DNA from: Leucoraja erinacea
Lineage: Eukaryota
Assembly: GCF_028641065.1 (NCBI RefSeq)
Contig: NC_073396.1
Coordinates: 13,144,001 to 13,208,000, forward strand
Direction: 5' to 3'
DNA: 64,000 nucleotides
In this document: positions 31,391 through 63,519 of the stretch, piece by piece
How positions within the stretch are numbered: position 1 is the stretch's first letter
Layout of the letters: every line of letters begins with the position of its first letter
The notes under the pieces: model-generated
Told to the model about the DNA's origin: nothing
The model's database searches: none
Seen by the model: the letters and a program-made list of their open reading frames with translations, nothing else
Position numbers and translations under genes: made by a program

Positions 31391-32005
31391 GTCAGAATTT
31401 TATATGTATTATTTGCTTTCTCTTTATTGTTTTACTTTGGTCAGCAGTTTCTCAGTTAGCAGACCACGCGAGATTCTATATGGACTGAGTATTAAAATGG
31501 CGTTGGAGTTTGGAGGATTCAAGAGAGATAGATGAAACACCAATGAAGAGAAACTATTATAAGCTTTCAGCTCAGATTTAGACAGCAAGGAGGCATGGAA
31601 GGCCAGTCAAATAAAATGCCTATAAACATGATTTTGCTCTGTAATTCCAAGCAGTTTAGATATAACCAACAAAATATTGTGTTTTTTATCCTACTCTTTG
31701 TGTTAAAGATGTCACAAGATAATGCTGACTTCTTGATTATGATAACGTTGACGTATAATGATGGACTTGCAAGTAGTGTCACAAATGCATAAAATAGGCT
31801 ACGAAAAGCCATTGTCATGACTCGCGGCTTAAATGGGGTTTCCAGTTCCCAAATCTGGCATGCCCACAAAAATCTCTCCTGAGCCATAACACAAAAAAAT
31901 ATTGAGTTCACGGAGAGCTGGATGAAGCTTCAGAATAAGAGAAGTGAAAATATTTTGTACTAATTTGGATGTTGGGTAGATTTACTGACTGAATTTTTTG
32001 GTTAG

Positions 32006-32122
32006 GAGTGAGCAATCTATGCAACTTGTCCCTCCCAATGAGATCGTTTTGGCTTTCAGCGAAGTTGAAGGGCAAATAGAAGCTTTGATCGGATCGACTA
32101 TAATGAGCAACATCGTCATTTG
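32006..32122 (+). CDS. PALB2: PALB2 exon 11 (WD40)
   Basis: SEQSMQLVPPNEIVLAFSEVEGQIEALIGSTIMSNIVI(W) / gtgaga; 117 nt. Confidence 0.94.
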
Positions 32123-32463
32123 GTGAGAACTTTATTTCCATTTGTTTCTTTATTATCAATATCACAATTTCTCTGTAGCTGTAACAATATATTCTGTCGG
32201 TCCGTTTCCTTCCTCTCTTTGCACAACCTGCTTTACTTGTGCATGGTTAGATTGTACTCGTGGCTGATATTATTTGCTTGGTTAGCACGCAAAACAAATT
32301 TTTCATTGCATCTTGGTCCACAAGGCAATAATATGCCAATACCATAGTTCAACTGGTAGCAAGCTGGCCTACGAGTCAGACAGCTGAAATCCATTTTAGC
32401 CACCTGAGAAAGCAAACCTGAGTTAATATTGCAGTTCAATGCTGGGAGTTTTCTGCAATGTAA

Positions 32464-32691
32464 ATGCTCCTGTCCCACTTAGGAAACCAGAACGGAAACC
32501 TCTGGAGACTTTGCGCCCCACCCAAGGTTTCCATGCGGTTCCCGGAGGTTGCAGGTGGTTGCCGGAGGTTGCAGGTAGTGGAAGCAGGTAGGGAGACTGA
32601 CAATAACCTCCGGGAACCGCACGGAAACCTTGGGTGGGGCGTAAAGTCTCCAGAGGTTTCCGTTCAGGTTTCCTAAGTGGGACAGGGGCAT
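32464..32691. mobile_element. Palindromic MITE (PIF/Harbinger-like)
   Basis: ATGCTCCTGTCCCACTTAGGAAACC... / ...GGTTTCCTAAGTGGGACAGGGGCAT, ~87-bp arms; flanks TAA / ATA. Confidence 0.85.
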
Positions 32692-33067
32692 ATATTTCTC
32701 TTTCAAACCAAAGCCTTGTCTCACTTCCGTGTACTTATAAGATCCTATGGAAGAGGAGTGGGTGAGTTGTAATTAGTGGCCAGAGACGAATACTTATCCC
32801 TCAATCAGCATCATTGAAACATCACTTTAAAAAACACTTTATCTGATTATTAGATTATTATTTGTAAAACCTTACTGTGTGATAATTGGCTGTCATATTT
32901 CCCACACTACATCAGGGATTGTGCTTCTAAGGGTTTTTCAATGGCTTCTGAGCTCCTTAGGGCATCATAGAAGTACAGGTCTTTCATCTTTTGACTGTTT
33001 ACCTGTACATGGCCTATGGTGCTCACTTGACCATTTGATCTAATTTAATTTCTTGTTTATCTCCTAG

Positions 33068-33155
33068 GAACATGAAGACTGGGCACCTCCTCAAGAGGAT
33101 CCATTTAAGTGAAAGCTACCCTGGCACTGTCTGCCAGAAAGCCTATTCCCAGTCG
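33068..33155 (+). CDS. PALB2: PALB2 exon 12 (WD40)
   Basis: NMKTGHLLKRIHLSESYPGTVCQKAYSQS / gtaaga; 88 nt. Confidence 0.94.
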
Positions 33156-34149
33156 GTAAGACGCAGTGAGAAATTATTGTTTTATGGTGGTGGAGACTAA
33201 GAACTAGAAAATCCTGTATATAATCCAGAACTCTGTTTTCTGTGAGCCTTTTGTCAGGGAGTGACCCATTTTAAACTGAAAGAAGAAAATTAGTAATAGT
33301 TGAAAGGATCTTAACTAAAATAGATTTAATGATTCCTTGTTAATGTGGCATTTGGACTGTATTTATAGTGTATGGCGTATTAATATGAGCTTCAGACTAT
33401 ATGCAGAATTGCTATCGTTAAGTACAGTAAATAGAAGTGCTATGTGGAAAGGAAATGGCTATGTATTGGAGGCAAACTTTCCTCTCATTTAATTAACTCA
33501 GGGCTGACTGAGAGCAGGAAGTAGAGACCATTTTCATTCAAGACCCTGATGATTTGAGAGTAAAAGATTGCCACTAAAAAGTTAATATTCCAAAATAAAA
33601 ATGAAATATTTGCTTCTGATAATTCATTTCAAAACCCAGTGGTACAATTTAACTGTGGACCAGTGACATTTAAATTGATTCGCCTTGTTTGATGCTGTAC
33701 TGTCTCTGGACCTACTGCCTGCTTGGCCTCTTGATTAAATAACTTGCAATTGAAACTACAAGTTCTGGGATTTTAGAGCAGGATTAGCATCGTCAGTTAG
33801 GTTAGAAATAATGGCAAATAGTATTTTGACCAAGAATTGATAGGTAGAATATGCAGGTCTTTCTTTCTCCAAACCATCACTCCCCAAAGTAAAGACTTTT
33901 AACACTTGCAGTTTCATTTTATCCCTGCCATTATATATCTGTCATGATTATGTCCAATATCACCAGTTTATATATTTCACACGGTCTGTATATATTGTAT
34001 ACTGGAGAGTTGCTTGCTAGTAAATAGAAAAGCTGCTGAAAAAATAAATTAAATCTTGAATGCAGCACCTAAATTATCAGTAAAATCTACAAAGTTAAAA
34101 TGGACTGGAATAAATATTTAGTAATAATTGTTTTATTTCTGGCATGTAG

Positions 34150-34298
34150 GGAATATTGTTCATTCTTCTAAGTCGTCGGTACATTGGCACCTGTGAAGGA
34201 GAGCAGGTCTGTGTTTTGAGAATGGTGGCTGTTAATCCCATGAATGGGAAAAGTAGACCAATCATGTCGTATACAATCCCTGTGGAATGCAGTGGGAG
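34150..34298 (+). CDS. PALB2: PALB2 exon 13 (WD40)
   Basis: GILFILLSRRYIGTCEGEQVCVLRMVAVNPMNGKSRPIMSYTIPVECSG(R) / gtaagg; 149 nt. Confidence 0.94.
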
Positions 34299-35928
34299 GT
34301 AAGGTCACTTGTATTACCTGATCAGTACCTTCATGTATAAAAATGCCCTTTGATACTCAGTATGTTACTGGGCTATGTTTAGATTGGCCACTCTCAGACA
34401 TAATATCTAATTGGGCTTTCCCTGCTAAATCTGTACATTCATGTTTTTTCTGAGAAAGTTTCCCTGTAAGTTATATTCTCCTATTAATTGCATCGATTTG
34501 TAGTATGGTAAGAGATTAGCTTTCCTGTCAGTGAAAATGGAAAATTGAGTCATAATTTTCTTCAGTGTTGGCTGGCTCATGGAGAGGTTTATGTATCCTA
34601 AAAAACAAGGTTCTAACATGAATGAAATGTTGCATTTACATTAATAAAAGGTGCATGAGCATCACTTTAATTGGACCCACCCAGCAGGAAATTGATGGTA
34701 TGAATTCAACCACCCCAATTTGTTTTCATGTGAAAGGCGTGCCTGCACTTTTGTGCAGCCTCTGTGCCCTTGCCCAAGTACATAAGAAACAGAACTAAAC
34801 CATTTAGCAGATATGTAATTCAGTCACATAATGGCTGATCTTTTACCACAGTGACATTTGCCTGTACTAACCCCTTAACCCATTGATTCACAAAACATCT
34901 ATCCATAAATATTCACAGAGACTGAGCCTTCATGGTCCTCTTAAGTACGCTCTACAGGAAGACATTTCTCTCTCTGTCTTGAATGGCCAATCCCTTATGA
35001 GATTGTGACTTCTTGTTCTTGACATTCTAGCTAGAGGAAACTTCAACCACATTTACTCAGTCAAGCTCTGTAAGAATCTTGTGTGTTCAACCCATTCATC
35101 TGCACTCAAGAAAGTATCAGCCCAAATCTCACCTCCTACTGGAAAAACCTACTATCCCAGGAGTCAGGTTGTGAATTTTGCAATGCTCCCTCAATTGCAA
35201 GTATGCTCTGCCTTTGGTAGGGAGATCTAGATCTGTAGGTGTTTTCTTACCAAAGTCCTATATTAGTAGAGCAATGTGAAGTGTCACATTTTGTCCTGTA
35301 ATCCTCCTGCAATAAAGGTCAATATACCATTTGCTTTTCTAATTCGCAATATACCATTCGCTTTTCCACATCCACTGATTGTGGATGATCAGCCATGATC
35401 ACATTGAATGACAGTGCTGGCTCGAAGGGCCGAATGGCCTACTCCTGCACCTATTGCCTATTGTCTAATTGTTTGTTGTACCAAAGATTTATTTATAAGA
35501 ATGCCTAGCTTCCTCTGGATTTCAATACTTTCAAAGCTTTCACATTGTATTCCATATACCATGTTCTTGTCAAGAGTTAGGCTAAAGAAGAACATAGAAA
35601 TAAGGTGATTGACAGAACCATAATTGACCCGAGGAAAAACGTATGCAACAAATGGTTTGGGGGTGGAATATATTACGGTGTTAATAGTGGAGGCAGATTC
35701 AATAGTCAAAAGGAGCCTGGATTACTATGTGAAATAAAAGAAAGCAGGGAGGTGGAACACCTGGATTGTTTTTATACAGAATTGTTTGGGGCACAAAGTC
35801 CTCCTTCCACACTAATCATTCTGTGAATCAGGTTAGTTGGATGTGCTCTTCCTTTTAATTAGGTTAATAACACATTTGTAGGAGTATTGTTTTTCTCATT
35901 TTAACATTGACTGTATTTCTTTAATCAG

Positions 35929-36154
35929 GTACATTGATGGAGGTGTGAAGGGGCAGTCCATTGCAGCAATTGTAACTCCCGGAACCATGGTACTTTGGAA
36001 TCTACTGTCTGGCCAAATCTCAACCATGCTCCAGCATGACTCTAGTGGGGACTGGTCACTATTTTACTGGGCTGAGGAGGACTCGTGTCTTCTAGCCAGA
36101 AAGAACGATAGCACTGTGTATATATACAAATGCTTAGGAGCCAGAACAGTATGA
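35929..36154 (+). CDS. PALB2: PALB2 exon 14 (last coding)
   Basis: aatcag / YIDGGVKGQSIAAIVTPGTMVLWNLLSGQ...STVYIYKCLGARTV-TGA. Confidence 0.94.
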
Positions 36155-44046: not shown

Positions 44047-44244
<198 letters not shown>

Positions 44245-45125
44245 TGATTGTAAGCTTCAATCATTGCTGTTTTTGTGTCCTATAAATTCTGTTCCCTTTC
44301 CCTGAATAAGGTGATTTACATTATGGTGCATGAACTCTAACAAGGAGCCTTCCAATACCACGTTCAAATGGTTGGTTGTCATGTGTCATACTAGACCTAG
44401 TCATTGACTCTAACCCTAACGCACACGCACATGCTTTTGGGGACCAGGGCTTTCTGCTTACCAGAGCTCCGTCCCATAAATGACCGAGTAGTTAGTGTCC
44501 TCTTGCAGCAAGACTTGGGAGCGACTGAGTAGCATATAACATTGTTCTATACCTCCCAGCAATGACTGCCTCTCCCTAACATTCATTTAATATCAGTGCT
44601 AAGACTGAATCTCCCTCACTTACCTTATCCAGCAGCACACAACATAAACCTTCTGACAAGCCACATCAATGCTTACAACAATGGCAATTAAAGATTATAT
44701 TTGGTGGTTTGGTATTCTGAGGGCTTGGAGCTCACCTCTTGACTCCCCCAAAGACTTTCCTCCATTTTCAAGAGGCAAATTAGGAGTGGAATGGGTCAGC
44801 ATCCATGAACCTGGTTGGCTGCAGCCGAGAAACTTGTGCAAAGGAATCTGCTTGATAGCAGTCGATCTACTACTTGAATGTTCACTCCCTCCACCATGCA
44901 AAGTGGGTGTAGCGTACAGTATCTGTGCAGGTGCAGCATTTCCCCAATGTTCTTTTGGCAGCAGCTCACAACCACAGGTGTTACCACATGTATTACCACT
45001 TAGATTGGCATGGCCAGCTGTTGACTCCAGGGTACTTGATGGATATCTGGCAAAACGTAACGCTGTACAGTGTTGGTATGTTGGTGATAAATAACGCTGA
45101 TAAAACCAGTCTCCAGGGCCACTAA

Positions 45126-45239
<114 letters not shown>

Positions 45240-47719: not shown

Positions 47720-49373
47720 TATCTTATTAAATCAGATATTCAATTGCTGAAAGGACAGCTTCAAATAATATTCTTTGCATTCTTCACTTCCCACTGGTCG
47801 CTAACCAGCTGATGAGAAGAGAAACAAATTAGATAATCATAAACATTTATGGCATGAGGTATTTGGCTCATTTGTACATGTGCTGTTATTGGGATAAATC
47901 TCCTGTTCCAGCAGTCACTCTAGCCTCAAACATTAAAAATACGCAAAGTATTTGTCTATGAGATCAGGGTTGTCTCACCTTTTCAAGCCCTGCTACTCTG
48001 CGAAATAAACTTTTCTCCCATCAAATTGATCTCAATGTTTCCTCCCAACGACTGGCAAAATCGGGGTAAATCCCTTCAAACTCCTCCAATGTTAGCTGAT
48101 GTGCTGGAACCAGAACTGTATGCAGAATTGTATCTGTGGCCTAACTAGTGTTATATGTGGGTCGAGTGTGCTCTCTTACATTCAGAAATAAAAGGGAAAT
48201 GGCTTAAAGCTGCCCTCCTAATTTCCCTTACACATTTCTCAAGTTCTGCCTGAATTGTCACTGCGAAAATGAACTTTGCATTGTAACACATCTAAATTAA
48301 GTATATACTGAATTCTCTCTTGGAATTATTATTTATTGGTAATATATGTCGTCTGGGTTGCGTTAGAGGAGTTCATGATCGTCTTCAAGCAGAACTCTCT
48401 GAGAAGCAATTGACGACCCAAGTCATTGAAATTCTGGTCCATTGGCGCCGGGATGCGAGGAGGGGAGAATCTTCCCAGTATTCGCCAGTATACATTTTTC
48501 CCACTAGGTGGCAGGGTGAGACGGGTTTGTGCCTTCACATGGAATCAGACGAGGCTGCAGATGCAGGAATCGTGAGCAAATTGCAACACAAAGATACTAG
48601 AGGAGCTCTATAATCTTTGATGCAAACTGAGGAACTCAGCGGCTCCGGCTGCATCTGTGGAGAGAAATGAAGATGAGTCCCGACTCGTCACATTTTGTCT
48701 CTGTGCCTCCGCAGATGCTGCCTGACTCGTCGAGTTACTCCGAGGTTTATACATTATGCTTTTAAATATACCGCACTTTAAAATCCACAATTTACCTCGA
48801 CTGTTACTGTACGCAACACGAGATTATTGGTAACCCGATGTTTTCCAATGCATGTTTTATATGTGGTTATCTACCTCGAGTGGAAATAGGATTACAAAAA
48901 GCCAGCACGTGCACAGCAGAGTCTGATGAAGGGTTCCGACCCAAAACTTCACCTATACTTTTCTCCAGAGTTACTCCAGCACTTTGTGTCTACGGTGTAA
49001 ACCAGCATCTGCTGTTCCTTCCTGCACAAGCCGCGGCCACGTGTACCCTGCACTCGCCCGGTGCTCCTGTTTGCTGTATCAACCTCCCCCCCCGGTTTCC
49101 CCATTCATTCGTCCCCCCTCCTCTCCTCTCCTCAGGTCTCTCTCGGTCTCTCCCACTTCTCCCTCAGTCCTAGTTCTCCCAGACACGCTTCCATTTCCCT
49201 GACAGGGTTTGGGTCGGATATCCTCTCCGGCTGCCGGCCAACCACAAGCGCTGGGATATCAGGATCTACGAGCCACCCTCCGGGCTCCTTGCATTTCGCT
49301 CCGATCAATGCAGCTCCCGGGTCGGCAGCCGCTCTCTTCCCGCTGGGCTCCTCGGCCTCCTCTCGGATGGACC

Positions 49374-49416
49374 ATGTGGGCCAGAGCAAGTTGGCTTCTG
49401 CTTCTCGCCAACGCAG
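49374..49416 (+). CDS. Uncharacterised CUB-mucin-SEA protein, exon 1 (signal peptide)
   Basis: ACCATG context, MWARASWLLLLANA(G) / gtaacc, phase 1 matches next exon; GC-rich promoter-like upstream. Confidence 0.72.
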
Positions 49417-50280
49417 GTAACCCAAGTTTACAGTCCTGAATAGAGGGGCGAAAGGGCTCCGGGAGATGACGTTTAACTGCAATTCTCTCGCGTTTAATTC
49501 AAATCCTGTCGCACATTTTTCAAAATGCAACGTACTTTTTTTGAACGAGCCTGTGGCGCTCTGATAACTGTTACAAATACGTATTTTTCGTGGGTGTAAC
49601 CAGAGCGCACGGCGTATGTACAATAGCACCGCGTGTCTCAGTACTCAGTATCGTGTGCGCAGCAGCATTCACGTGTACCGAGAATAGTACGCAAAAACAC
49701 TTTATTTTGCGTACTATTCAGGCTAGCCACAGCATCAGGTAGTTAAAAAAGAGAAAAGAAATTGATTGTAAAATTACAGAGAAAGTGCAGGATTAAAAAC
49801 GGTGTAAAGTCCACAATGAGATAGATTGAGAGATCAGGATCCAATCTTTAGCAAAAAAAGAAGTCCATTCGAGAATCTGAATTCAGTGGTGAAGAAACTA
49901 TTCTTGCATTTAGTGGTACATTTTATCATGCTTTAGTATCTTCTGCCCAAGAAAGAGGAAATAAGAGAATGACTGAGGTGTGAGTTGTCATTGATTATGT
50001 TGCCTGCTTTCCCAGGATCCCAGGAATTAGTACGTTATATGATGAGCGTTGATGGCACTGGGTCTGTACTCGCTGGAGTTTATAAGGATGAGGGAGCTCC
50101 TCATTGAAATTTACCGAATAGTTGGAGGCTTGGATAGAATGGATGTGGAGAGGATGTTTCCAATAGTGGGAGAGTCTGGGACTAGAGGTCATAGCCTCAG
50201 AATTAAAGGATGTTCGTTTAGGAAAGAGATGAGGAAGACTTTATTTGGCCAGACGGTGGTGAATCTGTGGAATTCTTAAA

Positions 50281-51687
50281 GACCAGTTAGCCTGACATCG
50301 GTCGTGGGGAAGATGCTGGAGTCAATTATTAAAGAAGCAATAACGGCACATTTGGATAGCTGTAAAAGGATTGGTCCAAGTCAGCATGGATTAATGAAGG
50401 GGAAATCCTGCTTGACTAATCTTCTGGAATTTTTTGAGGGTGTGACAAGTGAAATGGATGAAGGAGTGCCAGTGGATGTAGTGTATCTGGACTTTCAGAA
50501 AGCCTTTGACAAGGTCCCACACAGGAGATTAGTTGGCAAAATTAGAGCACATGGTATTGGGGGTAGGGTATTGACATGGATAGAAAATTGGTTGGCAGAC
50601 AGGAAACAAAGAGTAGGAATAAACAGGTCCCTGTCAGAATGGCAGGCCACTGAGTGGTGAGTGGCGTGCCGCAAGGCTCGGTGCTGGGGCCACAACTATT
50701 TACTATATATATTAATGATTTAGATGATGGAATTAAAAGTAACACTGGCAAATTTGCAGATGACACAAAGCTGGGTGGCAGTGTGAACTGTGAAGAGGAT
50801 GCTAGGAGGTTGCAGGGTGACTTGGACAGGTTGAGTGAGTGGGCAGATGCATGGCAGATGCAGTATAATGTAGATACATGTGAGTTTATCCACTTTGGCG
50901 GCAAGAACAAGAAGGCAGATTATTATTTCAATGCTGTCAGATTATGGAAAAAGGGAAGTGCAACGAGACCTGGGTGTCCTTGTACACCAGTCACTGAATG
51001 TAAACATACAGGTATGGCAGGCAGTGAAGAAAGCTAATGGCATGTAGGACTTCATAACGAGAGGATTAGAGTATAGGAGTAAAGAGGTCCTTCTGCAGTT
51101 GTACTGAGCCCTGGTGAGACCACATCCGTAGTATTGTGTGCAGTTTTGGTCTCCTAATTTGAGGAAGGACATTCATGCTATTGAGGCAGTGCAGCATAGG
51201 TTCACAAGGTTAATCCCCAGGATAGCAGGACTGTCATATGGGGAAAGATTGAGAAGACTGGACTTATATTCACTGGAATTTAGAAGGATGAGAGGGGATC
51301 TTATAGAAACGTATAAAATTATAAAAGAACTGGACAAGCTAGATGCAGGAAAAATATTCCAAATGTTGGGGGAGTCCAGAACCAGGGGCCAAAGACTAAG
51401 AATAAAGGAGAGGCCATTTAAAACTGAGATGAGAAAAAAAAAACTTTTTCACCCAGAGAGTTGTGAATTTGTGGAAATCTCTCCCACACAAAGCAATAGA
51501 GGCCAATTCACTGGATGAATTTAAAAGAGAGTTAGATAGAGCTCTAGGGGCTAACGAAATCAAGGGATATGGGGAGAAGGCATGCACGGGTTACTGATTG
51601 TGGATGAACAGCCATGATGACAATGAATGGTGGTGCTGGCTCGAAGGGCCAAATGGCCTCCTCCTGCACCTATTTTCTATGTTTCTA
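50281..51687 (+). mobile_element. CR1 LINE, 5'-truncated, RT domain to 3' end, inactivated
   Basis: KSCLTNLLEFF, VVYLDFQKAFDKVPH, GVPQGSVLGP, FADDTKL motifs with frameshifts and stops; nested in another CR1 (50035-50276 / 51690-51800). Confidence 0.95.
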
Positions 51688-52177
51688 ATGCTGAAGAATG
51701 GGGTTAGGAGGGAGAGATAGATCAGCCATGATTGAATGATGGAGTAGACTTGATGGGCCAAATGGCCTAATTCTGCTCCTATTACTTATGACCTTATGAC
51801 TTGACCTTCCCAAGGCAGTGTGAAATGTAGATGGAGTCAATGGGGAGAGAGGATGCTTTGTGCGATTTACTGGATTGCACCTACAACTCTCACCAATTGC
51901 TTGCTGTCATCATCCTAATATAGACACAAAAAGCTGGAGTAACTCAGCAGGTCCGGCAGCATCTCTGTGAAACGGTGGCGCAGCGGTAGAGTTGCTGCCT
52001 TACAATGCCAGAGATTGTAATCCGAGGCACTGACTGTGTGTACAACAGCACTGTGTCCCAACATTGTGTATGACAGGGAGTAATCCCAGCTCTGACTGTG
52101 TGAATAACAGCACTGTGTCCCACCTCTGACTATGTGTGTGCGCAGTTGTTTTTTTAATCACAATCTGTGTTCTTCAG

Positions 52178-52561
52178 GGTTTCTCCTCGGCCCATCCCAG
52201 GAGGAGTGTGGCGGTGTTCTGCTTCCCAATGTCACCCAGGGAATCTCGCAGTATTCCCTGCCTGCGACCGACTCCGTCAATGGGATCAGGTGTTACTGGA
52301 TTCTGCCAGCACCCAGAGCGGCGGCCGTCGAGTTGGAGGTTGTGTCAAATCAGACAGCGCCCCGGACCGGTGCCGGCTGTACTTCTGCCCACTTGACAAT
52401 CACACTGCAAGCAACAGAAAAGGAAAGTGAATTCTGTGGCCTCTTCTGGAGTATCCACGAGGCTGGAAATAAGCTTGTGATCCGAGCACGAGGGCCGCTT
52501 GCTATCACTCTTAAAGTTGTGACTTCTGGCTTTAAGCATGGATTTACCCTGCAGTACTTGG
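52178..52561 (+). CDS. CUB-mucin-SEA protein, exon 2 (CUB-like domain)
   Basis: tcttcag / FLLGPSQEECGGVL...RCYWILPAP...VELEV...C...LTI...FCG...SGFKHGFTLQYL / gtaagt; CUB-like pattern; phase 1-1. Confidence 0.82.
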
Positions 52562-52599
52562 GTAAGTTTGGCGGACTGAGGCACAGCGAGACTTCTGCC

Positions 52600-52650
52600 T
52601 GAGTGAGTGAGTGAGTGAGTGAGTGAGTGAGTGAGTGAGTGAGTGAGTGA
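52600..52650. repeat. (TGAG)n microsatellite
   Basis: Directly visible. Confidence 0.95.
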
Positions 52651-53226
52651 GATCTCTATAGAGATAGAGATAAATAATTAATAAAGAGGGAGATTGTGTC
52701 TTTGTTTCTGTGCATGGATACATAAGGAATCACAAATAATGGAATCGAACAAAAAACAAAGCGCTTGAGTAACTCTGTGAGTCAGGCAGCATCTGTGGAG
52801 GGAATGAATAGACAACATTTCGGGTCAGGTCGGGTTCGAGTCTGAAGAAAGGTCCTGACCCGGAATGCCGCCTATCTATTCCCTCCACAGATGCAGCCTG
52901 ATATGCGGAGTTACTCCAGTACTCTGTGTATGGTTTGGTACTGTATATGTTTGACTGCCTTTGTGAAATCGCCGCACCTGCACCTTTCTTTGCCTCTAAT
53001 TCCAAGCTGCCGGGTTCTCTACTTCCAATCTGTTGCTGATCCTCACGTTTTCAGTCGCCTAACTCCATAGTCGGTGATTCCATCCTAATCTCTCGGTCTG
53101 TTTTCTCCTTTGAAGACGTTGGTTAAAACCCACACCAGATCACCTCTGCTGGTGCATTCGATCTCATCTTCTGTCTGGCTCCACTGTGGAGCAGCGCCTC
53201 AGGAGGTGTGAGTACACGCGTTGTAC

Positions 53227-53272
53227 ACATACATACATACATACATACATACATACATACATACATACATAC
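53227..53272. repeat. (CATA)n microsatellite
   Basis: Directly visible. Confidence 0.95.
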
Positions 53273-53315
53273 GCGCGTAGCTTCGCGCCTGTGTATACGC
53301 GCTTGTGTGGTTATA

Positions 53316-53510
53316 TAGGAAGGAACTGCAGATGCTGGTTTAAACACAAAAAACTGCAGTAACTCAGCTGGACGGGCAGCATCTCTGGAGGGAAGTAGTG
53401 GGTGACGTTTCGGGTCTGAAGAAGGGTCTCGACCCGAAACGTCACCCATTCCTTCTCCACAGAGATGCTGCCTGTCCCGCTGAGCTACTCCAGCTTTTTG
53501 TGTCTGTCTT
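53316..53510. mobile_element. Penelope-derived inverted-repeat element with a hammerhead-like core
   Basis: aggaaggaactgcagatgctgg...gcagcatctct...ggtgacgtttcgggtc arm and its inverse; same family at ~4803, 12330, 15710, 17680, 23245, 26475, 30458, 30960, 36619, 38838, 43410, 48550, 48920, 51920, 52745. Confidence 0.8.
53412..53447 (+). ncRNA. Putative minimal type I hammerhead ribozyme
   Basis: GGGT-CTGAAGA-A-GGGTCTCGACCC-GAAA-CG-TC-ACCC: complete catalytic core, stem II, 4-bp stem I, ACGT palindrome as stem III. Confidence 0.55.
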
Positions 53511-53676
53511 CTGTGTGTTTATATATTTCCCCCTCTGATTCTGCCGCTGGTGTTGGACCCTATAAAACGTGATGTAAACGGCGAGGGGACGATCATTACT
53601 AAAACTGCAAACTGAATGCCAGCCAGGGTTGTACCTGAATAATCTCACTCGTGCTTTGTTCTCATGTTTGGGACAG

Positions 53677-56600
53677 GATTTCCCAGCAGAGGAATGGACC
53701 CAAATGGCCCGGAGCCACTGATGTCGATTCCAACCCCTTCTCCAGCCCGGGGAAAGGAAGCTGGCTTCTTCAAACACAAAGACATCTTCATGTCCCCCAC
53801 GTGGTCCGATCAAGACTCGAAACCCAGTGGGAAGGAGTTGGCGAGCAGACGACCTGCCGGCGTCCACCACCGCCCCCAGGCTCCCAATCTTGCAGTCCGT
53901 CCCAAGCGGGGAACCCGAGCCCACCCGGAGCCAGGAAACATCCCGACAACAAGGCATCACCAGGCGGGCCCCCGTGTCTCATCACATCCCAACTCGACAA
54001 GACTGGAGTCTCCAGGAGAATCTGCTCCTACGCCTGACTCCATCTCCACCACCCACACCAAACCCAACCCAGCCCCACAACACGGCAGCGCCACAGCCCC
54101 AGGACCGGGCCCAGCCTCCAGCTCTCGCCCAGGTCGCTACTCCATCCCTGGACCATTTGCCAACAACATCTCGGGCCCCATTGGAAGGTCCCAGTCGAAC
54201 TTCATCAGCGGTCAGAAGACATTGCCCGCTCCAACACTCACCTCCAGAGCGAACATTAACTCCAGCCTAGTGCTGAGACCCAGCCTTGGGTCCTTTCTAT
54301 TCACCCCTGAGAACATCACGCTGGTGGATGGAGCCCAGTCACTATCCCGGGCGGTACCTCGGCTAGAGGACTTGGATGATGTGATGAGCCACCAGGAAGA
54401 CAAGACGGGCAGGCGCCGTGTCCCGGGCTCAGGGTTGGGGCAGGAGCCAAGGCTGACCATGGGTGACGATGGGACGGGCAGCAGCAGCAGCAGCGATGCC
54501 GAAGGGGTTGCAACCGAGTCCCACCCCAACACCCCGCGGCCTCTGGCTCCGGGCCGGTCACTCAAAGCCGGTCCGGCGACACGCAGCCAGTCTGCCGGCA
54601 ACATTGCCCTGTTTACAAGACCCGGGGGCAGCCGGGGATCAGTCGGAGGGTCCCAGGGCGTTGACTACTTGCACGGGAGAGGAACGGCCCGGGACCCGGC
54701 ACCCACCCAGAAACGGGACCTCGGCTCCACTGCTGATCTCCGCGCCGCTCACTCCCCCACACGCCACTGGGAATCTGCATTGGGCTCCGGGAAACGCGGT
54801 GCTGTCTCCCCTCACACGAGCCCCACCTCACTCCACGTTCGCAATTCAAACGCAGGTAATCTCCGAAACCACCATCTGCTGACCTCAGCAGAAGTGAGTC
54901 AGCTCGGCGGCATGCAAAGGAAATTCCAGTTCAAAGACATTTCCTCCGCCGCGGCGATTAAACGTGTGTCAGAAAGTCCTGAACTGACTACACATTCTTC
55001 CAAGCTCCCAGTGGTGGGACCTTCCATCGACCAGGAAACAGATGCAGAGAGTTTGATCTGCGAGTCAGGAGCCAGCGGCTGTGCCCAAGTCCCTGGAATC
55101 CCTTCAGCTGTTCCTTCTGTGAATAATGTGGACACCACACAGACTGCACCATCACACTCACTGGGAATGGATGGAAGGTACTTGACAACGGCGCCCATCA
55201 ACACCTCTCCCAGTTCCGGGCGTTTCACCGGCCTCATCACGAGGCTTTCCACCACCGATGTCATCATATCCCGGCCTCTGACAAACAGCAGCCCACCATC
55301 CACTGAAGTTGACTATAGTGATACTCCACCCAGGGAGATGGGTCTCCAAACAGCCTTGCCATTCACATGGTTTCCCTGGAGATCACCAACGTTGTCTAAC
55401 ACCAGGCCGTCACGTCAAATCACCTTGCCCAGTGCATGGTCTTCAGGAAGAGTGGTCGTTTTACCGGGCAAGACCTCGGCACAAGTCCAGAACCAGGAAG
55501 TGGAAGTGACCACTTTGGGAAGGTTGGTTGCTCCAACCACCCCTCACTCGACTATTGATTTCTCAGACCCAACCCATTCTGGGGCACAATTCCCACCATC
55601 CTCGCCACTGCCTGTTTCGGTGACTAACTTGGACAAGTCCCAGCCATCGGAGCTTGGTCTTCTGACCAGATCACAGCCTCCTGTTGACCAGTGGGCTGTG
55701 GTAAGTTGGCAAAGGCCTGGCAGCTCCTCTCCAGCCTCGAGTGGGGCATCAGCCCTACCAACCAGCATCAGCTTGAAGATTAACTCTCATCCACCACCTT
55801 CATCTTCGGCAGAGGGTTCTTTAGTCAGTGAGGAATCTTTCACGTCATGGACGCTGAGTTCAGTGCCCAAAGGTTCTTCAAAGCTTCCTATCACACATGT
55901 TGGCACAGAAGATCTTGGCAACCTAGCAATGCTGTCAGCACAGTCTTGGTTAACTGAACAACGGCAATGGAAAATGTTGACGACGTTAGCCAATGTTGCT
56001 GAGCCTGATTCCATGGTGGAAACAAGCAGCCATGGATGGTCACCTACACCAGGCTCTTCAGCTCATCCCAAAATCACTCCTCAACTCTCGTCAACTTTAG
56101 TACCAACTGAGTTATTTATAACACATAGCACTCCTAGCGCCTCAACACTCAGCATGGATACCAGACAGACATGGAGCCCAGACGTCAGTCGGACACTGAG
56201 CCCAGACGTCAGTCAGACACTAAACACAGACGTCAGTCAGACACTGGGCCCAGAAGTCAGTCGGACACTGAGTGCAGGCAGCAGCCAGACACTGCTAACG
56301 GATATCACTCAGACACAGAGCACACACATCAAAAGGACACAGAGTACAGACATAGATTGGACACAGAGCAGAGATGTCAGTCCGATCGAGAACACGGGCA
56401 TTACTGGGCACAGATAGTCAGACCAAGAGATGCATCAGTCAGACCCAGAGCACAGACATCAACTGGACAGAAAGCATCGACATGAGCCAGACGGAGAGCA
56501 CGGTTGTGAGTGAGACAGAGAGTGCAGGCAGCAGACGGACATTCAGCACAGATGACAGTCAGACAGAGGGTTCAGATATCAGTCAGACAGAGAGGACAGA

Positions 56601-58941
56601 CATCAGCTGGACATTGGGCCCGAATATCAGTCAGACACTGACCATGGATATTAGTGAGACACAAAGCCAGGACATCATTAATACACTGACCTCACACATC
56701 AGACCTACACTGAGTACAGATGTCAGTCAGACACAGAACACAGACATTAGTCAGACACTGGGTATGGGCAGCAGTCTGACACAGAACATGGGTGTCAGTT
56801 GGACACAGAGCACAGACATAAGGCGGACATCAGGCCCAGATGTCAGTCAGACACTGAAGCCAGACATCAGTCAGACACTGGGCCCAGACATCAGTCAGAC
56901 GCTAAGCACAAACATCAGTCGGACATTGAACACAGACGTCAGTCGGACACTGGGCCCAGACGTCAGTCAGACACTGAGTGCAGGCAGCATCCGGACACTG
57001 CTAACGGATATCACTCGGACACAGAGCACACACATCAGGACACAGAGTACAGACATAGATTGGACACAGAACAGAGATATCAGTCTGATCGAGAGCACGG
57101 GCATCATTGGGACAGATAGCACGAACATCAGTCAGACAGAGAGCGCAGACATCACTCAGACAGAGAGCGCAGACATCAGTCAGACACAGAGCGCAGACAT
57201 CAGTCAGACAAAGAGCGCAGACATCACTCAGACAGAGGACAAAGACATCAGTCAGACACAGGGCACAGACATCAGTCAGACAGAGAGCGCAGACATCAGT
57301 CAGACACAGAGCACAGACATCAGTCAGACAGAGGACACAGACATCAGTCAGACAGAGGACACATACATCAGTCAGACACTGAGCAGGGACAGTCGGTCAC
57401 TGAGCGCAGACATTACTCAGTCACTGGGCACGGATGCCAGTCAGACCCAGAGCACAGACATCAACTGGACAGAAAGCATCGACGTGAGCCAGACGGAGAG
57501 CACGGTTGTGAGTGAGACAGAGAGGTCAGACATCAGCTGGACATTGGGCACAAATATCAGTCCGACACTGGACCCAGACGTCAGTCGGACACTGAGTGCA
57601 GGCAGCAGCCGGACACTGCTAATGGATATCACTGAGACACAGAGCACACACATCAGGACACAGAGTACAGACATAGATTGGACACAGAGCAGAGATGTCA
57701 GTCCGATCGAGAGCACGGGCATTATTGGAACAGATAGCACAGATGCCAGTCAGACCCAGAGCACAGACATCAGTCAGACACTGAGCGCAGACATCAACTG
57801 GACAGAAAGCATCGACATGAGCCAGACGGAGAGCATGGTTGTGAGTGAGACAGAGAGTACAGGCAGCAGACGGACATTCAGCACAGATGACAGTCAGACA
57901 GAGGGTTCAGATATCAGTCAGACAGAGAGGACAGACATCAGCTGGACATTGGGCCCGAATATCAGTCAGACACTGACCATGGATATTAGTGAGACACAAA
58001 GCCAGGACATCATTAATACACTGACCTCACACATCAGACCTACACTGAGTACAGATGTCAGTCAGACACAGAACACAGACATTAGTCAGACACTGGGCAC
58101 AGACATCAGTCGGACACTGATTGCAGGCAGCAGCCGGACACTGCTAACGGATATCACTCAGACACAGAGCACACACATAAGAAGGACACAGAGTACAGAC
58201 ATAGATTGGACACAGAGCAGAGATGTCAGTCTGATCAAGAACATCATTGGGACAGATAGCACGAACATCAGTCAGACAGAGAGCCCAGACATCAGTCAGA
58301 CACAGGGCACAGACATCAGTCAGACACAGGACACAGGCATCAGTCAGACACAGGACACAGACATCAGTCAGACACAGGACACAGACATCAGTCAGACACA
58401 GGACACAGACATCAGTCAGACACAGGACTCGGGCATCAGTCAGACACAGGAGGCATCAGTCAGAACGAGAGCACAGACATCAGTCAGACACTGACCAGGG
58501 ATATTATCCAGACCCAGAGCCAGGACACCATTAATACACTGACCTCATACGCCAGACCTACACTGAGTACAGATGCCAGTAAGACACAGACCACAGGTGT
58601 CGGTCGGACACAGAGCACAGGTGTAATTGGGACAAGGGATACATGCATCAATCAGACACGGGGCAGGGTTGGCTCTGCTCTAACTTTGCCCACACCAAAC
58701 ACCGGGTCATTTGCACTCCTGCACCCTACGTCCCAGCCAAGCATCAATACACCAGTCAGGCCAACATCGTCAGCTGGGAATACAGAGAGAGTGGGAGTTG
58801 TGCAGAGCACCGGGCAGCAGCAGCAGCAGCAGCACACACCAGCCACCTCCGGAGCTGCAAAGTACACAGTCCCACTGTCCACTCCTCCAGAGAGACACAA
58901 GCAGATTTTTATCGTGGAGGACCGGCCACCACAGGTCAGAG
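53677..58941 (+). CDS. CUB-mucin-SEA protein, exon 3 (giant Ser/Thr-rich exon; two frameshifts as assembled)
   Basis: ORFs 53664-56417, 56374-58494 and 58686-58991 tile the region; gacag acceptor and AGAG/gtacgc donor are both phase 1; 5265 nt. Confidence 0.7.
56170..58660 (+). repeat. Coding 24-nt (8 aa, ~DISQTQST) tandem repeat with higher-order duplications
   Basis: GACATCAGTCAGACACAGAGCACA-type units; block 56453-56762 recurs almost exactly at 57788-58097. Confidence 0.93.
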
Positions 58942-59089
58942 GTACGCCTGAACTGAACCACTTAGTGTGGCTGGGCTGGTTAAGTTTTTAGCAACCGATG
59001 ACGTCCAAAATGTTGACGCTGGGCAACTGAACAATAATAATGGATGGGAGGAGGGAGGAGGGAGACGAAGAAATGATCGCGGTGGGACA

Positions 59090-59530
59090 AGACTTTGATT
59101 ATGTTCGCATAAGGCAGCGTGAAGTGTAGATGGAGTCAATGGTAGGAAGTCTTATCTTTTTAATGCACTGGGCTACATCTACAACGAGTTTGATGGGATT
59201 ATGGTGTAGAAGGCAGAACTAGTTGATAAAGAGGAATCTAAATGTTGGTGTCGAGGTGTGGAACCAGAGATGGGCTGAGCAACTTGTGGCCAGGGACATG
59301 GTGTCAGGTGTGGACCTGTTGTGACAGTAAGCATACCACAGTGGACTAAAGCTGGCTGGGAAGCTGGAGTGAATGTGCTCCATCACCAGTCCCTCAAAGC
59401 ACTTCATGATGGTGGATGTCTTAGCCGTTTAATGGTAGTCATTAAGGCACGATACCTAACTTTTCTTGAGCACCAGTATAAAAGTGGTCTTTTTGAAGCA
59501 GGTGGCGACCTCAGAATGAGGTAGTGAGAG
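59090..59530 (-). mobile_element. Rex1/Babar LINE RT remnant
   Basis: MKCFEGLVMEHIHSSFPASFSPLWYAYCHNRSTPDTMSLA resembles the Rex1 MKCFERLV...DPLQFAYR..RST.DAI motif. Confidence 0.8.
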
Positions 59531-59714
59531 TTAGTTAATCTGTAGTGCACAGTTCTGCTGTGGACATTTTCGGTTTAGATTTAATTATTGTCGGATGTAC
59601 CAAGATACAGTGAGGAACTGAACTATTGGATTTAAAGTACTTCAGGATTAATAATAATAAAACATTAATGATGTTTAATGTTTTCTGAGTCATTCGTAAC
59701 TGTCACAGTATAGA

Positions 59715-60586
59715 AACATAGAACCATAGAAAATAGGTGCAGGAGTAGGCCATTCGGCCCTTCGAGCCTGCACCGCCATTCGATATGATCATGGCTGATC
59801 ATCCAACTCAGTATCCCATCCCTGCCTTCTCTACATACCCCATGATCCCTTTAGCCACAAGGGCCACATCTAACTCTCTCTTAAATATAGCCAATGAACT
59901 GGCCTCAACTACCTTCTGTGGCAGAGAATTCCACAGATTCACCACTCTCTGTGTAAAAAATGATTTTCTCATCTCGGTCCTAAAAGACTTCCCTCTTATC
60001 CTTAAACTGTGACCCCTAGTTCTGGACTTCCCCAACATCGGGAATAATCTTCCTGCATCTAGCCTGTCCAACCCCTTAAGAATTTTGTAAGTTTCTATAG
60101 GATTCCCCCTGAATCTTCTGAGTTCCAGCGTGTACAAGCCGAGTCTATCCAGTCTTTCTTCATATGGAAGTCCTGCCATTCCAGGAATCAGTCTGGTAAA
60201 CCTTCTCTGTACTCCCTCTATGGCAAGAATGTTGTTCCTCAGATTAGGAGACTAAAACTGTACGCAATACTCCAGGTGTGGTCTCACCAAGACCCTGTAC
60301 AACTGCAGTAGAACCTCCCTGCTCTTATACTCAAATCCTTTTGCTATGAATGCTAACATACCATTTGCTTTCTTCACTGCCTGCTGCACCTGCATTCCTA
60401 CTTTCAATGACTGGTGTACCATGACACCCAGGTCTCGTTGCATCTCCCCATTTCCTAATCGGTCACCATTCAGATAATAGTCTACTTTCCTGTTTTTGCC
60501 ACCAAAGTGAATAACCTCAGATCCACATTATACTACTCTTCCTGCATTTTGCCCACTCACCCAACCTATCCAAGTCACCTTGCCTC
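59715..60586 (-). mobile_element. Young CR1 LINE 3' part
   Basis: QRDLGV...LVRPHLEYCVQF, YEERLDRLGLYTLE...RVVNLWNSLP. Confidence 0.94.
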
Positions 60587-60734
60587 CTAATAACTAAAGC
60601 TTCGTGTCCAAATGCTGACAATTTGTCCAGATGATTAATATATATGTACAAGCTTCCCAGCCTGAGCCTTTCCAAATGTGCCATTCTGAAAAGAACCCTA
60701 TGCCCCATCTTTCCAATATACTGAACCTCCATAA

Positions 60735-60840
60735 TACAAGAACTCCTTATGTGGGTTGTTACTTGTGGGCGGAGCACTAAGGCAAATTCCTTGTATGTGA
60801 ATACTTGGTCACTAAACTTACTTACTTACTTACTTACTTA
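60735..60840 (+). mobile_element. Rex1/Babar-like 3' end with (ACTT)n tail
   Basis: aaattccttgtatgtgaatacttggtcactaaa followed by (ACTT)n. Confidence 0.6.
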
Positions 60841-61544
60841 AGACTAGGGGAAGGTGCCGTAAAAGTCAGATTTATTTTATTGCAACCGACAAGAAGAGCA
60901 ATTCCATTCAGATTCCCTCAGATGCCGACCACATTGAACAATAAGAAATGACTCAGAGATCCAGTATTTTCAGCCAGAAAATTCTAGCAGTTCTGAGCAG
61001 GGTCGGTCAGCATTCCTGGAGAGAGGAACAGGATAAATGTTTCAGCATGATAACCTTGCACTTTACTCAGGCCCGAGGAATGTTCGCTACACAATAAAAC
61101 GCTCACTCTTTACTCCACTTCGCTCCTGAATACATCCAGGATTTTCTGACTCATTTCCGATGTCCGGCATCTGCAGTATTTCAGCATCTTTGTGCTTTTT
61201 CTGAAATCGTATAAATGCCCTTCCGATTGGTGTGGAGAGGAGATTTTTATTTGTAAAGACCAATCAGAAGTGTCTAGTGTCAGAACTGGGATCCACTAAA
61301 GCTCCTGAGGCAGGGGGTAATTCAGGGGTTGAGTTTCAATGCAGAAGGTATATACCTTATATAAGGTATATAAAGGCTGTGTGTTTTTAAAGTTCACACA
61401 TTTAGCTTCATGGACAGACATTTTTCCCATTCAGGAAGTGGCTCATTTCCTCCCTGAATACTTTGCATTGTCAACTTTATCTGCAACGTATTGAAGATGA
61501 CGAACTACAGTCACTCCACTCTTTCATATCTCCACCCCAACGGC

Positions 61545-61905
61545 AGCATTTCTTCACCCTGGCCACTCCTTATCCTCCCCTCTCCCATCAAGCAAGAGGT
61601 ATAGAAGTGTGAAAATGCACAACTCCAGATTCGGGGACAGTTTCTTCCCAGCTGTTTCAGGCAACTGAACCATCCTCCAAACCGCTAAACAGCAGCCCTG
61701 TGCTACTATCTACCTCATTGGGCTTTAATCAGATGTTACTGGACTTTATCTTGTACTAAACGTTATTCCCTTTATCACGTATCTGCACACTGTGATGGCA
61801 CAATTGTAATCATGTATTGTCTTTCTGCTGACTGGTTAGCACGCAACAAAAGCTTTTCACTGTACCTCGGTACACGTGACAATAAACAAAACTAAACTAA
61901 AACAA
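61545..61905 (+). mobile_element. Rex1/Babar LINE 3' fragment
   Basis: LPSSKRYRSVKMHNSRFGDSFFPAV C-terminus; tail ttcactgtacctcggtacacgtgacaataaa(ctaaa)n. Confidence 0.82.
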
Positions 61906-61949
61906 ACCAAGTGCCTATCAGCATTGCATGCTCAGTGACTTCCTGCATT

Positions 61950-62210
61950 CACCAGTACTCTTTTCCAGTGTTACATATTTACTGACCTATGCCCAGCAGT
62001 GCTCTGCTCCAGTGTTAGACCTGTGATAGACCTGTCCCCACCTGTACTGTACCCAGTTATTCAGCGATAGACCTGTCCCCACCAGTACTGTTGTATCCCA
62101 GTGTTATACAGTTACAGATTTGATTCGACTGATACTGTACCCCAGTGTTATACAGCGACAGACCTGTCCCCACCAGTACAGTACCCCAGTTGTACAACGA
62201 TAGATCTGAT
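61950..62210. repeat. Degenerate ~40-45 bp minisatellite
   Basis: Recurring gacctgtccccaccagtactgtaccccagtgttatacagc units. Confidence 0.8.
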
Positions 62211-62554
62211 CAAAAACAATAGTGCATTTCTACAGCATCTTCAATGTCAAATGATCTTATTCCTGTGAAGCATTCTTATGCGGCACGTCAGAATGTAATT
62301 TATCTGGAGACAAATAGCTTGGTCACTGTTGTTGGTTATAATGGTGCAATGTTTATGGGAAGGATATTCTAGTGCTTGGTTCATGGTTAGTAAAGGCACA
62401 GTTGCAATGGTGGAGTGATTACATTCATGGCAGGAATTGGAGACCAGAATTGGAGGAATGGCAATATCTCCGTGTAAGGTGGTGATGTTCGGGAGATGTG
62501 GGATAATGGAGGAACTTGGATCAGTAATGATAACCTCAACGCTCTCTCTTGCAG

Positions 62555-62670
62555 AGGGCATCACTGTAAAGTTTCCAACAAAGCTTATTCTGGACATGAG
62601 CTTTGATTATCGCCTGAAAGACTCAAAGTCCGACGAATACCAGAACCTGGCCGAGGATTTCACACTCAAA
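62555..62670 (+). CDS. CUB-mucin-SEA protein, exon 4 (SEA domain, first part)
   Basis: cttgcag / (E)GITVKFPTKLILDMSFDYRLKDSKSDEYQNLAEDFTLK / gtaaga; F...L.D..S.EY..L SEA pattern. Confidence 0.85.
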
Positions 62671-62917
62671 GTAAGACTTTAAAGTCATGATCTGATCAGC
62701 AGCTCTCATCTGGGTTGGCTTGTTCTACCGCTGAGGGGGATTGTAGGTTGAGCAAGTGTACAGTACTCTCCACAATGTGCCAAAGCTCCTGGGTGTCACC
62801 ATCACCTCAGCCCTAGCGAGGCACCGTGTGATGAGCTCAAGGCTCCGTTACAACTTGCCACCCGGGTTCACCAGATACCTCTTGACATTTTCCTTGGACA
62901 GTCCCAATCCACCCAGT

Positions 62918-63180
62918 ATTACTTTACTTTAGAGATACAGTGTGGATACACCGAGTCTGCGCCGACCCATGTATACTAGCACTATCCTACACACTAGGGA
63001 CAATTGCCAATTTATCTACAAACCTGTACATCTTTGGAGTGCGGGGAGAAACCGGGGCATCCGGAAAAAACCCCACGCAGCCACAGGTAGAACATATCAA
63101 CTCTGTGCAGACTGCACCCATAGTCGGGATCGAACCAGTGCTGTAAGGCAGCAACTCTATTGCTGTGCCACTGTGCCACC
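62918..63180 (-). mobile_element. Near full-length V-SINE (HE1-like)
   Basis: Minus strand GGTGGCACAGTGG box A, GGTTCGATCCC box B, V-domain-like core, (TAAAG)n tail. Confidence 0.82.
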
Positions 63181-63460
63181 CAAATGTGTTCAGCTGTTAC
63201 AGTCATTGCAACTCATTTCACACTGTTGCTGTTGATGGGCTCCAGCAATGGCAGGTAGAGTCATTGGGTTTCCACTAACGTTGTTGCCACACAGCTCACA
63301 CTGACACATAGTTGGTGTCATTGAGTGTAGCTTCCTGTTGTTACAGAGTGTGTTCACTCACTCACATTCACCGTGCCTTGCCCGGCTCTCGCTTGCTGGG
63401 TTTTGCTGCCTCTTTGGGAAGCAGGAATACTGTAACCCCTCTCCTCCTCTTGTCCTGCAG

Positions 63461-63519
63461 ATCGTTCCATTTTATCACAAGGTTCCTGGGTTTCAGCAGC
63501 TGCAGATTAAACGCTTCAG
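63461..63519 (+). CDS. CUB-mucin-SEA protein, exon 5 (SEA domain)
   Basis: cctgcag / IVPFYHKVPGFQQLQIKRF(R/S) / gtgatg; Y...PGF..V.I..FR pattern before the GSVVV site; gene continues beyond the window. Confidence 0.82.

Follow-up and report, generated by a model that had tools for sequence, protein, structure and literature searches.

Locus and exon map

The window, a 64,000-nucleotide stretch of DNA from the skate Leucoraja erinacea, carries five coding exons downstream of PALB2 and NDUFAB1 exons, all on the same strand (Table 1). The name NDUFAB1 was inferred from the PP-binding domain together with human gene order. A sequence-only reading had placed an unnamed CUB-mucin-SEA gene beside NDUFAB1, and the acyl-carrier exon indeed lies upstream. 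In the human gene order given in PMC6693662, PALB2 is followed by NDUFAB1 and UBFD1 and no coding gene is listed among them, in agreement with its further claim that the gene is apparently absent from the human locus. All five exons have AG/GT ends, and their phases (1, 1, 1, 0, 2) are as first read. The signal peptide call for exon 1 rests on a hydrophobic run, and the CpG-rich stretch around this exon likely marks the promoter or 5' end of the gene.

Table 1. Features of the window, with positions counted from its first base.
Feature	Position	Strand	Evidence
PALB2 WD40 exons	27895..36151	+	7/135 scanned frames match PF16756, in profile order
NDUFAB1 (mitochondrial acyl carrier), last coding exons	44047..45239	+	Pfam PP-binding E 1.5e-05 at 44047-44244; final exon translation
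CpG-rich stretch around exon 1	49000..49700	.	CpG obs/exp 0.68-1.31 in 200-nt windows 49000-49799, vs 0.32 at 49800
Exon 1 (coding), N terminus resembling a signal peptide, donor in phase 1	49374..49416	+	14/14 residues identical to Amblyraja P0020 97-110
Exon 2, CUB-fold domain, phase 1-1	52178..52561	+	121/127 identical to Amblyraja P0020
Exon 3 (5265 nt), Ser/Thr(/Pro)-rich stalk, phase 1-1	53677..58941	+	88-93% identity to P0020 per segment
Degenerate tandem array of 24-nt (8-codon) units within exon 3, itself containing larger duplications	56162..58634	+	
Frameshift 1, small-indel cluster vs internal duplicate copies	56395..56440	+	first stop 56415-56417
Frameshift 2, opposite sign, restores original frame	58445..58460	+	
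Exon 4, first part of SEA domain, phase 1-0	62555..62670	+	Pfam SEA E 0.081; 32/38 identical to P0020
Exon 5, SEA continued, phase 0-2	63461..63519	+	19/19 identical to P0020 2111-2129

Exon 5 ends a few codons 5' of the SEA cleavage-loop position. Cleavage-site, EGF and TM exons had been anticipated downstream: the final 480 nt of the window did not reveal the exon that should carry the cleavage site, whilst orthologs do run on into EGF-EGF-TM. The skate TM and tail exons lie beyond base 64000 and both are known from orthologs only. Bony vertebrates have an additional N-terminal EGF, and a profile of it returned nothing in six frames of 48400-64000 (best E 0.25). A search of sequencing runs listed no RNA run that contains the locus. 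In two same-species RNA runs of unspecified tissue (5% and 3% of reads), exon 2 and nearly the whole unique part of exon 3 had zero depth and 52100-56520 showed no splice junction, which speaks neither for nor against expression. Separately, the read-mapping tables were dominated by a repeat in the intron, at about 53280-53580.

Identity and range of the vap family

These five exons probably form the 5' portion of a skate vap ortholog, an intact gene with a single-pass mucin-like architecture. Window segments were each 84-100% identical to the Amblyraja ortholog P0020. A query with the C-terminal module of Heterodontus recovered both P0020 and Danio si:ch211-14k19.8 (E 5.5e-89), and the cluster of the latter includes BAM66237.1, 'vascular associated protein'. 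The sequence chain from the window through P0020 to zebrafish Vap is continuous, and a CUB profile seeded with exon 2 also reached Danio Vap. The name vap already stands on NCBI records of the sharks Mustelus and Cetorhinus. The gene is thus already named, with a known ortholog, and is not a new system. The label 'unnamed' fails, as the name and a zebrafish study both exist. The sequence-only reading had counted orthology to a well-described gene against itself; a named ortholog was found, but vap is only thinly described and the protein is, as that reading had it, poorly characterised. In the open-access literature (subscription journals lay outside coverage) nothing was found on Vap domain structure or loss, and the zebrafish 'vascular associated protein' appeared in reference-list mentions only.

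A gene tree of 23 selected rows, built on C-terminal modules (385 aa) with no outgroup and with Amblyraja in place of the window, branched as the vertebrate species tree, with 14 of 20 inner branches starred. A crane record named IMPG2 fell within it, beside ostrich. IMPG2 is the automatic name on most bird records of the family, which is masked by dozens of wrong automatic names, among them mucin-2, mucin-17, IMPG2 and collagen-like. The family extends from sharks to monotremes, a pan-vertebrate range that the sequence-only reading had missed. No marsupial or placental names occurred among the 240 family matches listed (92 further matches lie beyond these), and vap may be absent from therian mammals. 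If this loss is true, vap would be a candidate gene behind some way in which the vessels or red cells of therians differ from those of other vertebrates.

Orthologs continue as SEA-EGF-EGF-TM followed by a 160-aa tail; in P0020 the EGF-EGF-TM module leads into a tail ending in WTA. Between Amblyraja and Danio the EGF pair was 61% identical and the tail 51% over 157 aa (E 2e-42), whilst blastp gave no match for CUB, stalk or SEA. Of 249 records, 235-247 had the tail motifs. Conservation across the family is highest in the tail and the EGF pair, the tail being far better conserved than SEA and strongly conserved from sharks to platypus.

Extracellular domains and the stalk reading frame

Exon 2 encodes a diverged, CUB-like domain, as first proposed. 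Its Pfam CUB match (E 0.013, 16.3 bits) lies under the 21.4 gathering cut-off, as does that of the Heterodontus ortholog (18.9 bits), to which exon 2 is 56% identical (E 1.9e-34). Exon 2 contains four Cys, and its predicted structure is a beta-sandwich of eight strands (pLDDT 68.5). The best VIA matches to this model had Z 8.9-8.0 and rmsd 2.9-4.5 over 97-111 aligned residues, with SID1 tied; eight of the ten best rows are what we take to be CUB-bearing proteins. Foldseek gave mixed matches, the best to PliG (E 9.8e-04), and PDB sequence searches gave weak PCPE-1 CUB matches plus one compositional match. In a 518-aa ortholog model the CUB part had pLDDT under 50. The exon 2 profile located the domain immediately behind the signal peptide in 100 of 255 records, among them zebrafish Vap. 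No such domain turned up in the amphibian, lizard, crocodilian, bird and monotreme records examined, many of these models being partial, suggesting that the CUB head is not needed family-wide.

The SEA domain had been recognised from its start in exon 4, and this stands: the Pfam match is weak in the window exon and the Heterodontus ortholog, at 28.7 bits, passes the 26.4 cut-off. An ortholog model found its best fold matches in MUC16 SEA domains (E 4.8e-04), and the full-length ortholog P0002 has a single SEA stretch. The site type of self-cleaving SEA domains is G-S-V-V-V (PMC6491460). This was the motif anticipated for the skate, but the closest ortholog, Amblyraja, has GGVQI in its place. 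A GSVVV-type site is also missing in 77/77 teleost/gar records, whilst a G-S-hydrophobic motif occupies the SEA loop in 9/10 chondrichthyan, 114/119 bird and 2/2 monotreme records. The skate's own cleavage-site position lies outside the window and its state was read from orthologs. As the closest ortholog is without the nucleophilic serine, the skate SEA domain probably does not self-cleave.

Exon 3 is PTS-rich: Ser+Thr makes up 24.8% of its unique part and rises to 37.2% within the array (~1,670 codons, frameshifted segments). It reads as three stop-free segments of 910, 681 and 162 codons. Near 56405 the Ser/Thr frame is lost, to be regained near 58453, and the spliced frame consequently contains 18 stops, starting at codon 1056. 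Of the ~1750 Ser/Thr-rich codons claimed earlier, the length is therefore right but the open frame is not. A cryptic intron removing 56405-58455, weighed by eye, was set aside, the segment being 88% identical to Amblyraja coding sequence.

The frameshifts are present in the sequence as given, and both frame breaks fall inside the array. We think it likely that both arose as errors in assembling the tandem array and that the living gene is open, since the Amblyraja ortholog is open. In three chondrichthyan orthologs the frame stays open along the stalk, and in seven shark species the gene models begin just after their own array. Were the frameshifts real, the long isoform would stop at codon 1056 and be degraded or secreted as a CUB-plus-stalk fragment, with membrane function lost or left to a short stalk-skipping form. 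The 18 stops fit this reading, as does the fact that exon 3 can be skipped in frame: Chiloscyllium models X3 and X4 (P0006, P0135) join CUB to SEA, and Caretta model P0145 is without most of the stalk. These forms are, however, database models and not reads, and the 681- and 162-codon segments past frameshift 1 contain no stop of their own. Also in favour of real frameshifts, same-species DNA run X1 had depth in the frameshift 1 bin with no indel listed, but the listed X1 and X3 read pieces stop at 56285-56322, short of frameshift 1, array copies inflate depth there and some read differences went uncounted. Read mapping (52100-56520, frameshift 1 only) thus neither showed nor excluded frameshift 1. 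With a close ortholog open, we regard real frameshifts as unlikely.

Function and comparison with known systems

Kawahara's zebrafish vap study of 2012 reportedly used morpholino knockdown. Its title ties vap to erythropoiesis and angiogenesis (Kawahara 2012), and functional evidence for vap rests on this one paper. Zebrafish vap belongs to a blood-vasculature gene set (PMC11968557). Expression is not only vascular, given its enrichment in iridophores in another zebrafish data set (5.80 RPKM vs 0.06, 0.09 and 0.00; PMC3706446).

The domain order agrees with the CUB-PTS-SEA cell-surface mucin proposed at the outset, and by sequence the protein is likely a long cell-surface mucin-like receptor whose stalk is presumably O-glycosylated. 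Such a stalk would hold the CUB head away from the membrane and set membrane spacing, and the head may bind a putative ligand on the matrix or a neighbouring cell. The conserved cytoplasmic tail, with its NPxF, Ser/Tyr motifs and terminal WTA, may recruit PTB/FERM or PDZ adaptors and so pass adhesion signals into the cell.

We also considered that the protein is an IMPG2-like matrix proteoglycan scaffold, mainly carrying glycosaminoglycan chains in the extracellular space. IMPG2 shares the membrane-proximal SEA-EGF-EGF-TM module, the origin of the bird automatic names, its cluster was among the Atlas feature matches (rank 10, score 0.85, a lead only), and the stalk has Ser-Gly pairs (11 in segment A). 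But IMPG2 has two SEA domains against one in the full vap ortholog, vap adds an N-terminal CUB and a distinct conserved tail, and the IMPG2-named crane record nests in the vap tree, making this reading highly improbable. That vap is instead a barrier mucin of epithelia, of MUC1/3/12/13/17 type, with a self-cleaving SEA, a stalk shed as decoy and a secondary tail, is quite unlikely. PTS plus SEA passes the first mucin screen of PMC1552070, and both the G-S-hydrophobic loops and the MUC16 fold matches speak for it. Against it are the missing cleavage motif in the closest ortholog and in teleost/gar records, tail conservation far above that of SEA, and zebrafish data that place the gene in a vascular gene set and in iridophores.

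The conservation of tail and EGF pair points instead to a HEG1-like signalling mucin. By this analogy, it is plausible, if slightly short of probable, that vap works like HEG1 in vascular cells through CUB-ligand binding, stalk spacing and tail adaptor recruitment. HEG1 itself has a vascular role, and its tail binds KRIT1. A broader version is very doubtful: vap would be an overlooked signalling mucin of endothelium throughout vertebrates, the counterpart of HEG1, which marsupials and placentals would have lost from their vap complement, with a near-invariant tail and an ectodomain remodelled by lineage (retention or loss of the CUB and of an additional EGF, no SEA self-cleavage in skates and teleosts), and skate and shark stalk arrays would truly break frame, phase 1-1 exon skipping yielding a compact CUB-SEA-EGF form.

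Among known systems, zebrafish Vap is the ortholog and shares the signal peptide, CUB-like head, Ser/Thr stalk, SEA-position domain, two EGF, TM and WTA-ending tail. The skate stalk is about twice as long, with an 8-residue repeat, and its exon is frameshifted in the window; the skate CUB keeps four Cys whereas zebrafish keeps the first pair, and the teleost SEA is more diverged. MUC1/3/12/13/16/17 resemble vap in having one large PTS exon followed by SEA, EGF and TM, but vap differs in its N-terminal CUB, its long conserved tail and, in the closest ortholog and in teleosts, the absent cleavage serine, so that the resemblance drawn here is one of layout. ADGRG6/GPR126 likewise combines a distal CUB with a SEA of lineage-variable cleavage (PMC6954182); it is, however, a 7TM GAIN receptor, whilst vap is single-pass with a mucin stalk. 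HEG1, whose clusters were among the Atlas leads (score 0.79-0.80, all Atlas leads being <0.9), shares PTS, EGF and TM domains with vap but is without an identifiable SEA and has no CUB mentioned (PMC1552070). HEG1 is kept in mammals, and the likeness proposed here is in how the two proteins would work, not by a sequence match of their tails.

Identity and structure of the gene

The exons tabulated below belong to vap, the vascular associated protein gene, which is real, already named and thinly studied; the sequence-only reading had taken it as unnamed. Exon 2 matches a Heterodontus protein at 56% identity, and the full Heterodontus isoform comprises a signal peptide, CUB, stalk, SEA, EGF pair, transmembrane (TM) segment and tail. 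Its C-terminal 394 residues, used as query, gave 142 protein matches, and among the 120 matches listed were sharks, skate, sturgeons, gar, teleosts, coelacanth, lungfish, amphibians, turtles, lizards, a bird, platypus and echidna. The zebrafish member, si:ch211-14k19.8, lies in a cluster that includes BAM66237.1 'vascular associated protein', Mustelus and Cetorhinus records bear the name vap, and a tree of the C-terminal modules (23 hand-picked records, no outgroup) agrees with the species tree, thus identifying the gene as vap. Against P0020, the Amblyraja radiata (skate) record, the window is 100, 95, 93, 88, 91, 84 and 100% identical over the seven segments compared, which suggests that it comes from a near relative among the skates. 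Bird vap records (P0143-P0262) are mostly auto-named IMPG2, MUC17, MEP1B or collagen-like, and a crane record called 'IMPG2' falls inside the vap tree.

The positions and phases proposed for the five exons were borne out, and the proposed architecture was correct. PALB2 WD40 exons (7 of 135 scanned frames match) and an acyl-carrier exon precede the gene on the same strand. In human, according to the available text of PMC6693662, the genes run PALB2, NDUFAB1, UBFD1, EARS2.

Exons of vap in the window
Exon	Position	Phase	Ends	Content
1	49374-49416	1	AG/GT	
2	52178-52561	1	AG/GT	CUB-like
3	53677-58941	1	AG/GT	stalk, 5265 nt
4	62555-62670	0	AG/GT	weakly SEA
5	63461-63519	2	AG/GT	

An ATG 7 nt 5' of the start lies out of frame and begins a short reading frame overlapping the main one (49367-49420); its -3 context is weaker than that of the main ATG. 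The Amblyraja model begins 96 residues earlier, drawing on the equivalents of 48494-48571 and 49206-49373. The former lies upstream in a different frame, so both stretches are likely 5' untranslated exon sequence. Introns and intergenic DNA carry reverse-transcriptase-like LINE fragments (50000-51800, 59700-60600, 46050-46500 and 42650-43060), which we take to be of CR1 type. A short repeat of very high copy lies at about 53280-53580, and intron 3 holds a 44-nt tandem repeat of 4.7 copies (61984-62190).

Frameshifts in the stalk exon

The length of exon 3 is a multiple of three, yet the exon is not open: the spliced frame is interrupted by 18 stop codons, beginning at codon 1056. The Ser/Thr frame runs for 910 codons, shifts near 56405 (break 1), continues for 681 codons, shifts back near 58453 (break 2) and ends with 162. 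A net return to frame after two shifts is roughly a coin toss, so compatible phases are uninformative on whether the stalk is intact. The phases of the sequence-only reading stand, but it missed the frameshifts.

An assembly error is the likely cause. The stalk is open in the Amblyraja, Heterodontus and Heptranchias orthologs, every exon 3 segment of the window is stop-free, and the vap models of seven other sharks start just past their own tandem array, all of which count in its favour. Both breaks lie inside an array of degenerate 24-nt repeats that also contains internal duplications, and break 1, compared with its internal duplicate, consists of several small indels packed into about 40 nt between near-perfect flanks. 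Four of the seven sharks have a separate CUB-bearing model ending within the array. The downstream halves of the shark models are 59-72% identical to Heterodontus, which reads as coding constraint with an assembly or annotation problem at the arrays. In the split shark pairs P0004/P0015, P0134/P0265, P0007/P0018 and P0008/P0017 the two models part at a Ser/Pro/Gly array near the stalk start, elsewhere in the stalk than the skate array. X1, a same-species DNA read run, and X3, a read run of a relative, both depart from the window at full depth at 53679, 54763, 56030, 56037 and 56049, as expected either from errors in single bases or from sampling a different animal.

Real frameshifts are unlikely, and two observations speak for them. 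No indel is listed at break 1 despite depth in that bin from X1, where the pieces listed stop short of the break and some differences went uncounted; and Chiloscyllium has exon-skipping models. A broken or skip-only skate allele is a rival reading of the same gene.

Head, cleavage sites and phylogenetic range

Exon 2 matches CUB weakly (E 0.013, below the Pfam cut-off), as exon 4 does SEA (Pfam E 0.081). Modelled by AlphaFold from a 44-row alignment, exon 2 takes the form of an eight-strand sandwich (pLDDT 68.5). Its top VIA matches (Z 8.9-8.0) include TMPRSS6, neuropilin-1, MASP-1, Gpr126 and TSG-6, with SID1 tied, and Foldseek returned a similar mix with PliG first. Together, the model and its matches are moderate evidence for a diverged CUB fold. 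An iterated profile grown from exon 2 located the head in 100 of 255 records, directly behind the signal peptide, from sharks, skate, sturgeons, teleosts including zebrafish Vap, coelacanth, lungfish and turtles; it found no head among the records of amphibians, gar, lizards, crocodilians, birds or monotremes, many of them partial. Several CUB-less records pass from signal peptide straight to stalk. Of 291 records, 37 carry an additional EGF ahead of the stalk (sturgeons, coelacanth, lungfish, turtles, alligators and a few birds), and a six-frame profile search of 48400-64000 found no exon for it in the window. At 52468-52502 and 53694-53937 X1 carries two markedly different haplotypes (8 of 175 sites, one contig pair); the non-window letters at the listed positions are those of X3, and some alter CUB residues.

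The G-S-hydrophobic SEA motif is the autoproteolysis site of MUC1 in the available text of PMC6491460 and PMC6954182. It is kept in 9/10 chondrichthyan, 5/5 sturgeon, 1/2 coelacanth/lungfish, 3/9 amphibian, 8/11 turtle, 3/3 lizard, 0/1 crocodilian, 114/119 bird, 2/2 monotreme, 0/77 teleost/gar and 0/10 unnamed records. Amblyraja (GGVQI) is the sole chondrichthyan exception, so self-cleavage at SEA is improbable in the skate protein; the exon concerned lies outside the window. The window and Amblyraja share a furin-type site, RPKR (53898-53909), in the first part of the stalk, which is absent from Heterodontus, Heptranchias and zebrafish. Cleavage there could free the CUB head in skates, where the cleavage serine of SEA is likely missing.

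In six test species, identity to Amblyraja is 59-75% for the EGF pair and 42-77% for the tail; by blastp the stalk was matched by Heterodontus only and CUB by Heterodontus and paddlefish only. Four tail motifs are present in 235-247 of 249 records (isoforms included). An echidna query against proteins of 30-1053 residues gave 190 matches (8000 candidates scored), and the 120 listed came from birds, turtles and one alligator, apart from two without a name. Neither marsupials nor placentals are named among the 240 matches listed for the Heterodontus and echidna queries (ten rows without species name, 92 further matches beyond the listings), a search of protein records rather than genomes with proteins of 1054-1144 residues left out. 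Therians have probably lost vap.

Possible function

Kawahara, Endo and Dawid (2012), who named vap, reportedly found that the gene is expressed in endothelium and that morpholinos disturb vessels and haemoglobin. In the available text, vap falls within a blood-vasculature gene set (PMC11968557) and is enriched in iridophores (PMC3706446). With most subscription journals outside our coverage, we found no literature on the CUB head of Vap, on variation at its cleavage site or on its loss in therians.

The variable head, freely evolving stalk, optional cleavage and fixed EGF pair and tail fit a membrane receptor or an adhesion scaffold that would do its essential work at and beneath the membrane. 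We propose tentatively, and by analogy, that CUB may bind ligand at the tip of a putatively O-glycosylated stalk while, in vascular cells, adaptors of the PTB/FERM or PDZ type would be recruited by the tail. A sheddable barrier mucin and an IMPG2-like proteoglycan are rivals to such a receptor or scaffold. HEG1, which has a vascular role, is the closest working analogy, sharing PTS, EGF and TM. Unlike the vap protein, HEG1 has no SEA: the available text of PMC1552070 gives it PTS, EGF and TM domains and no SEA.
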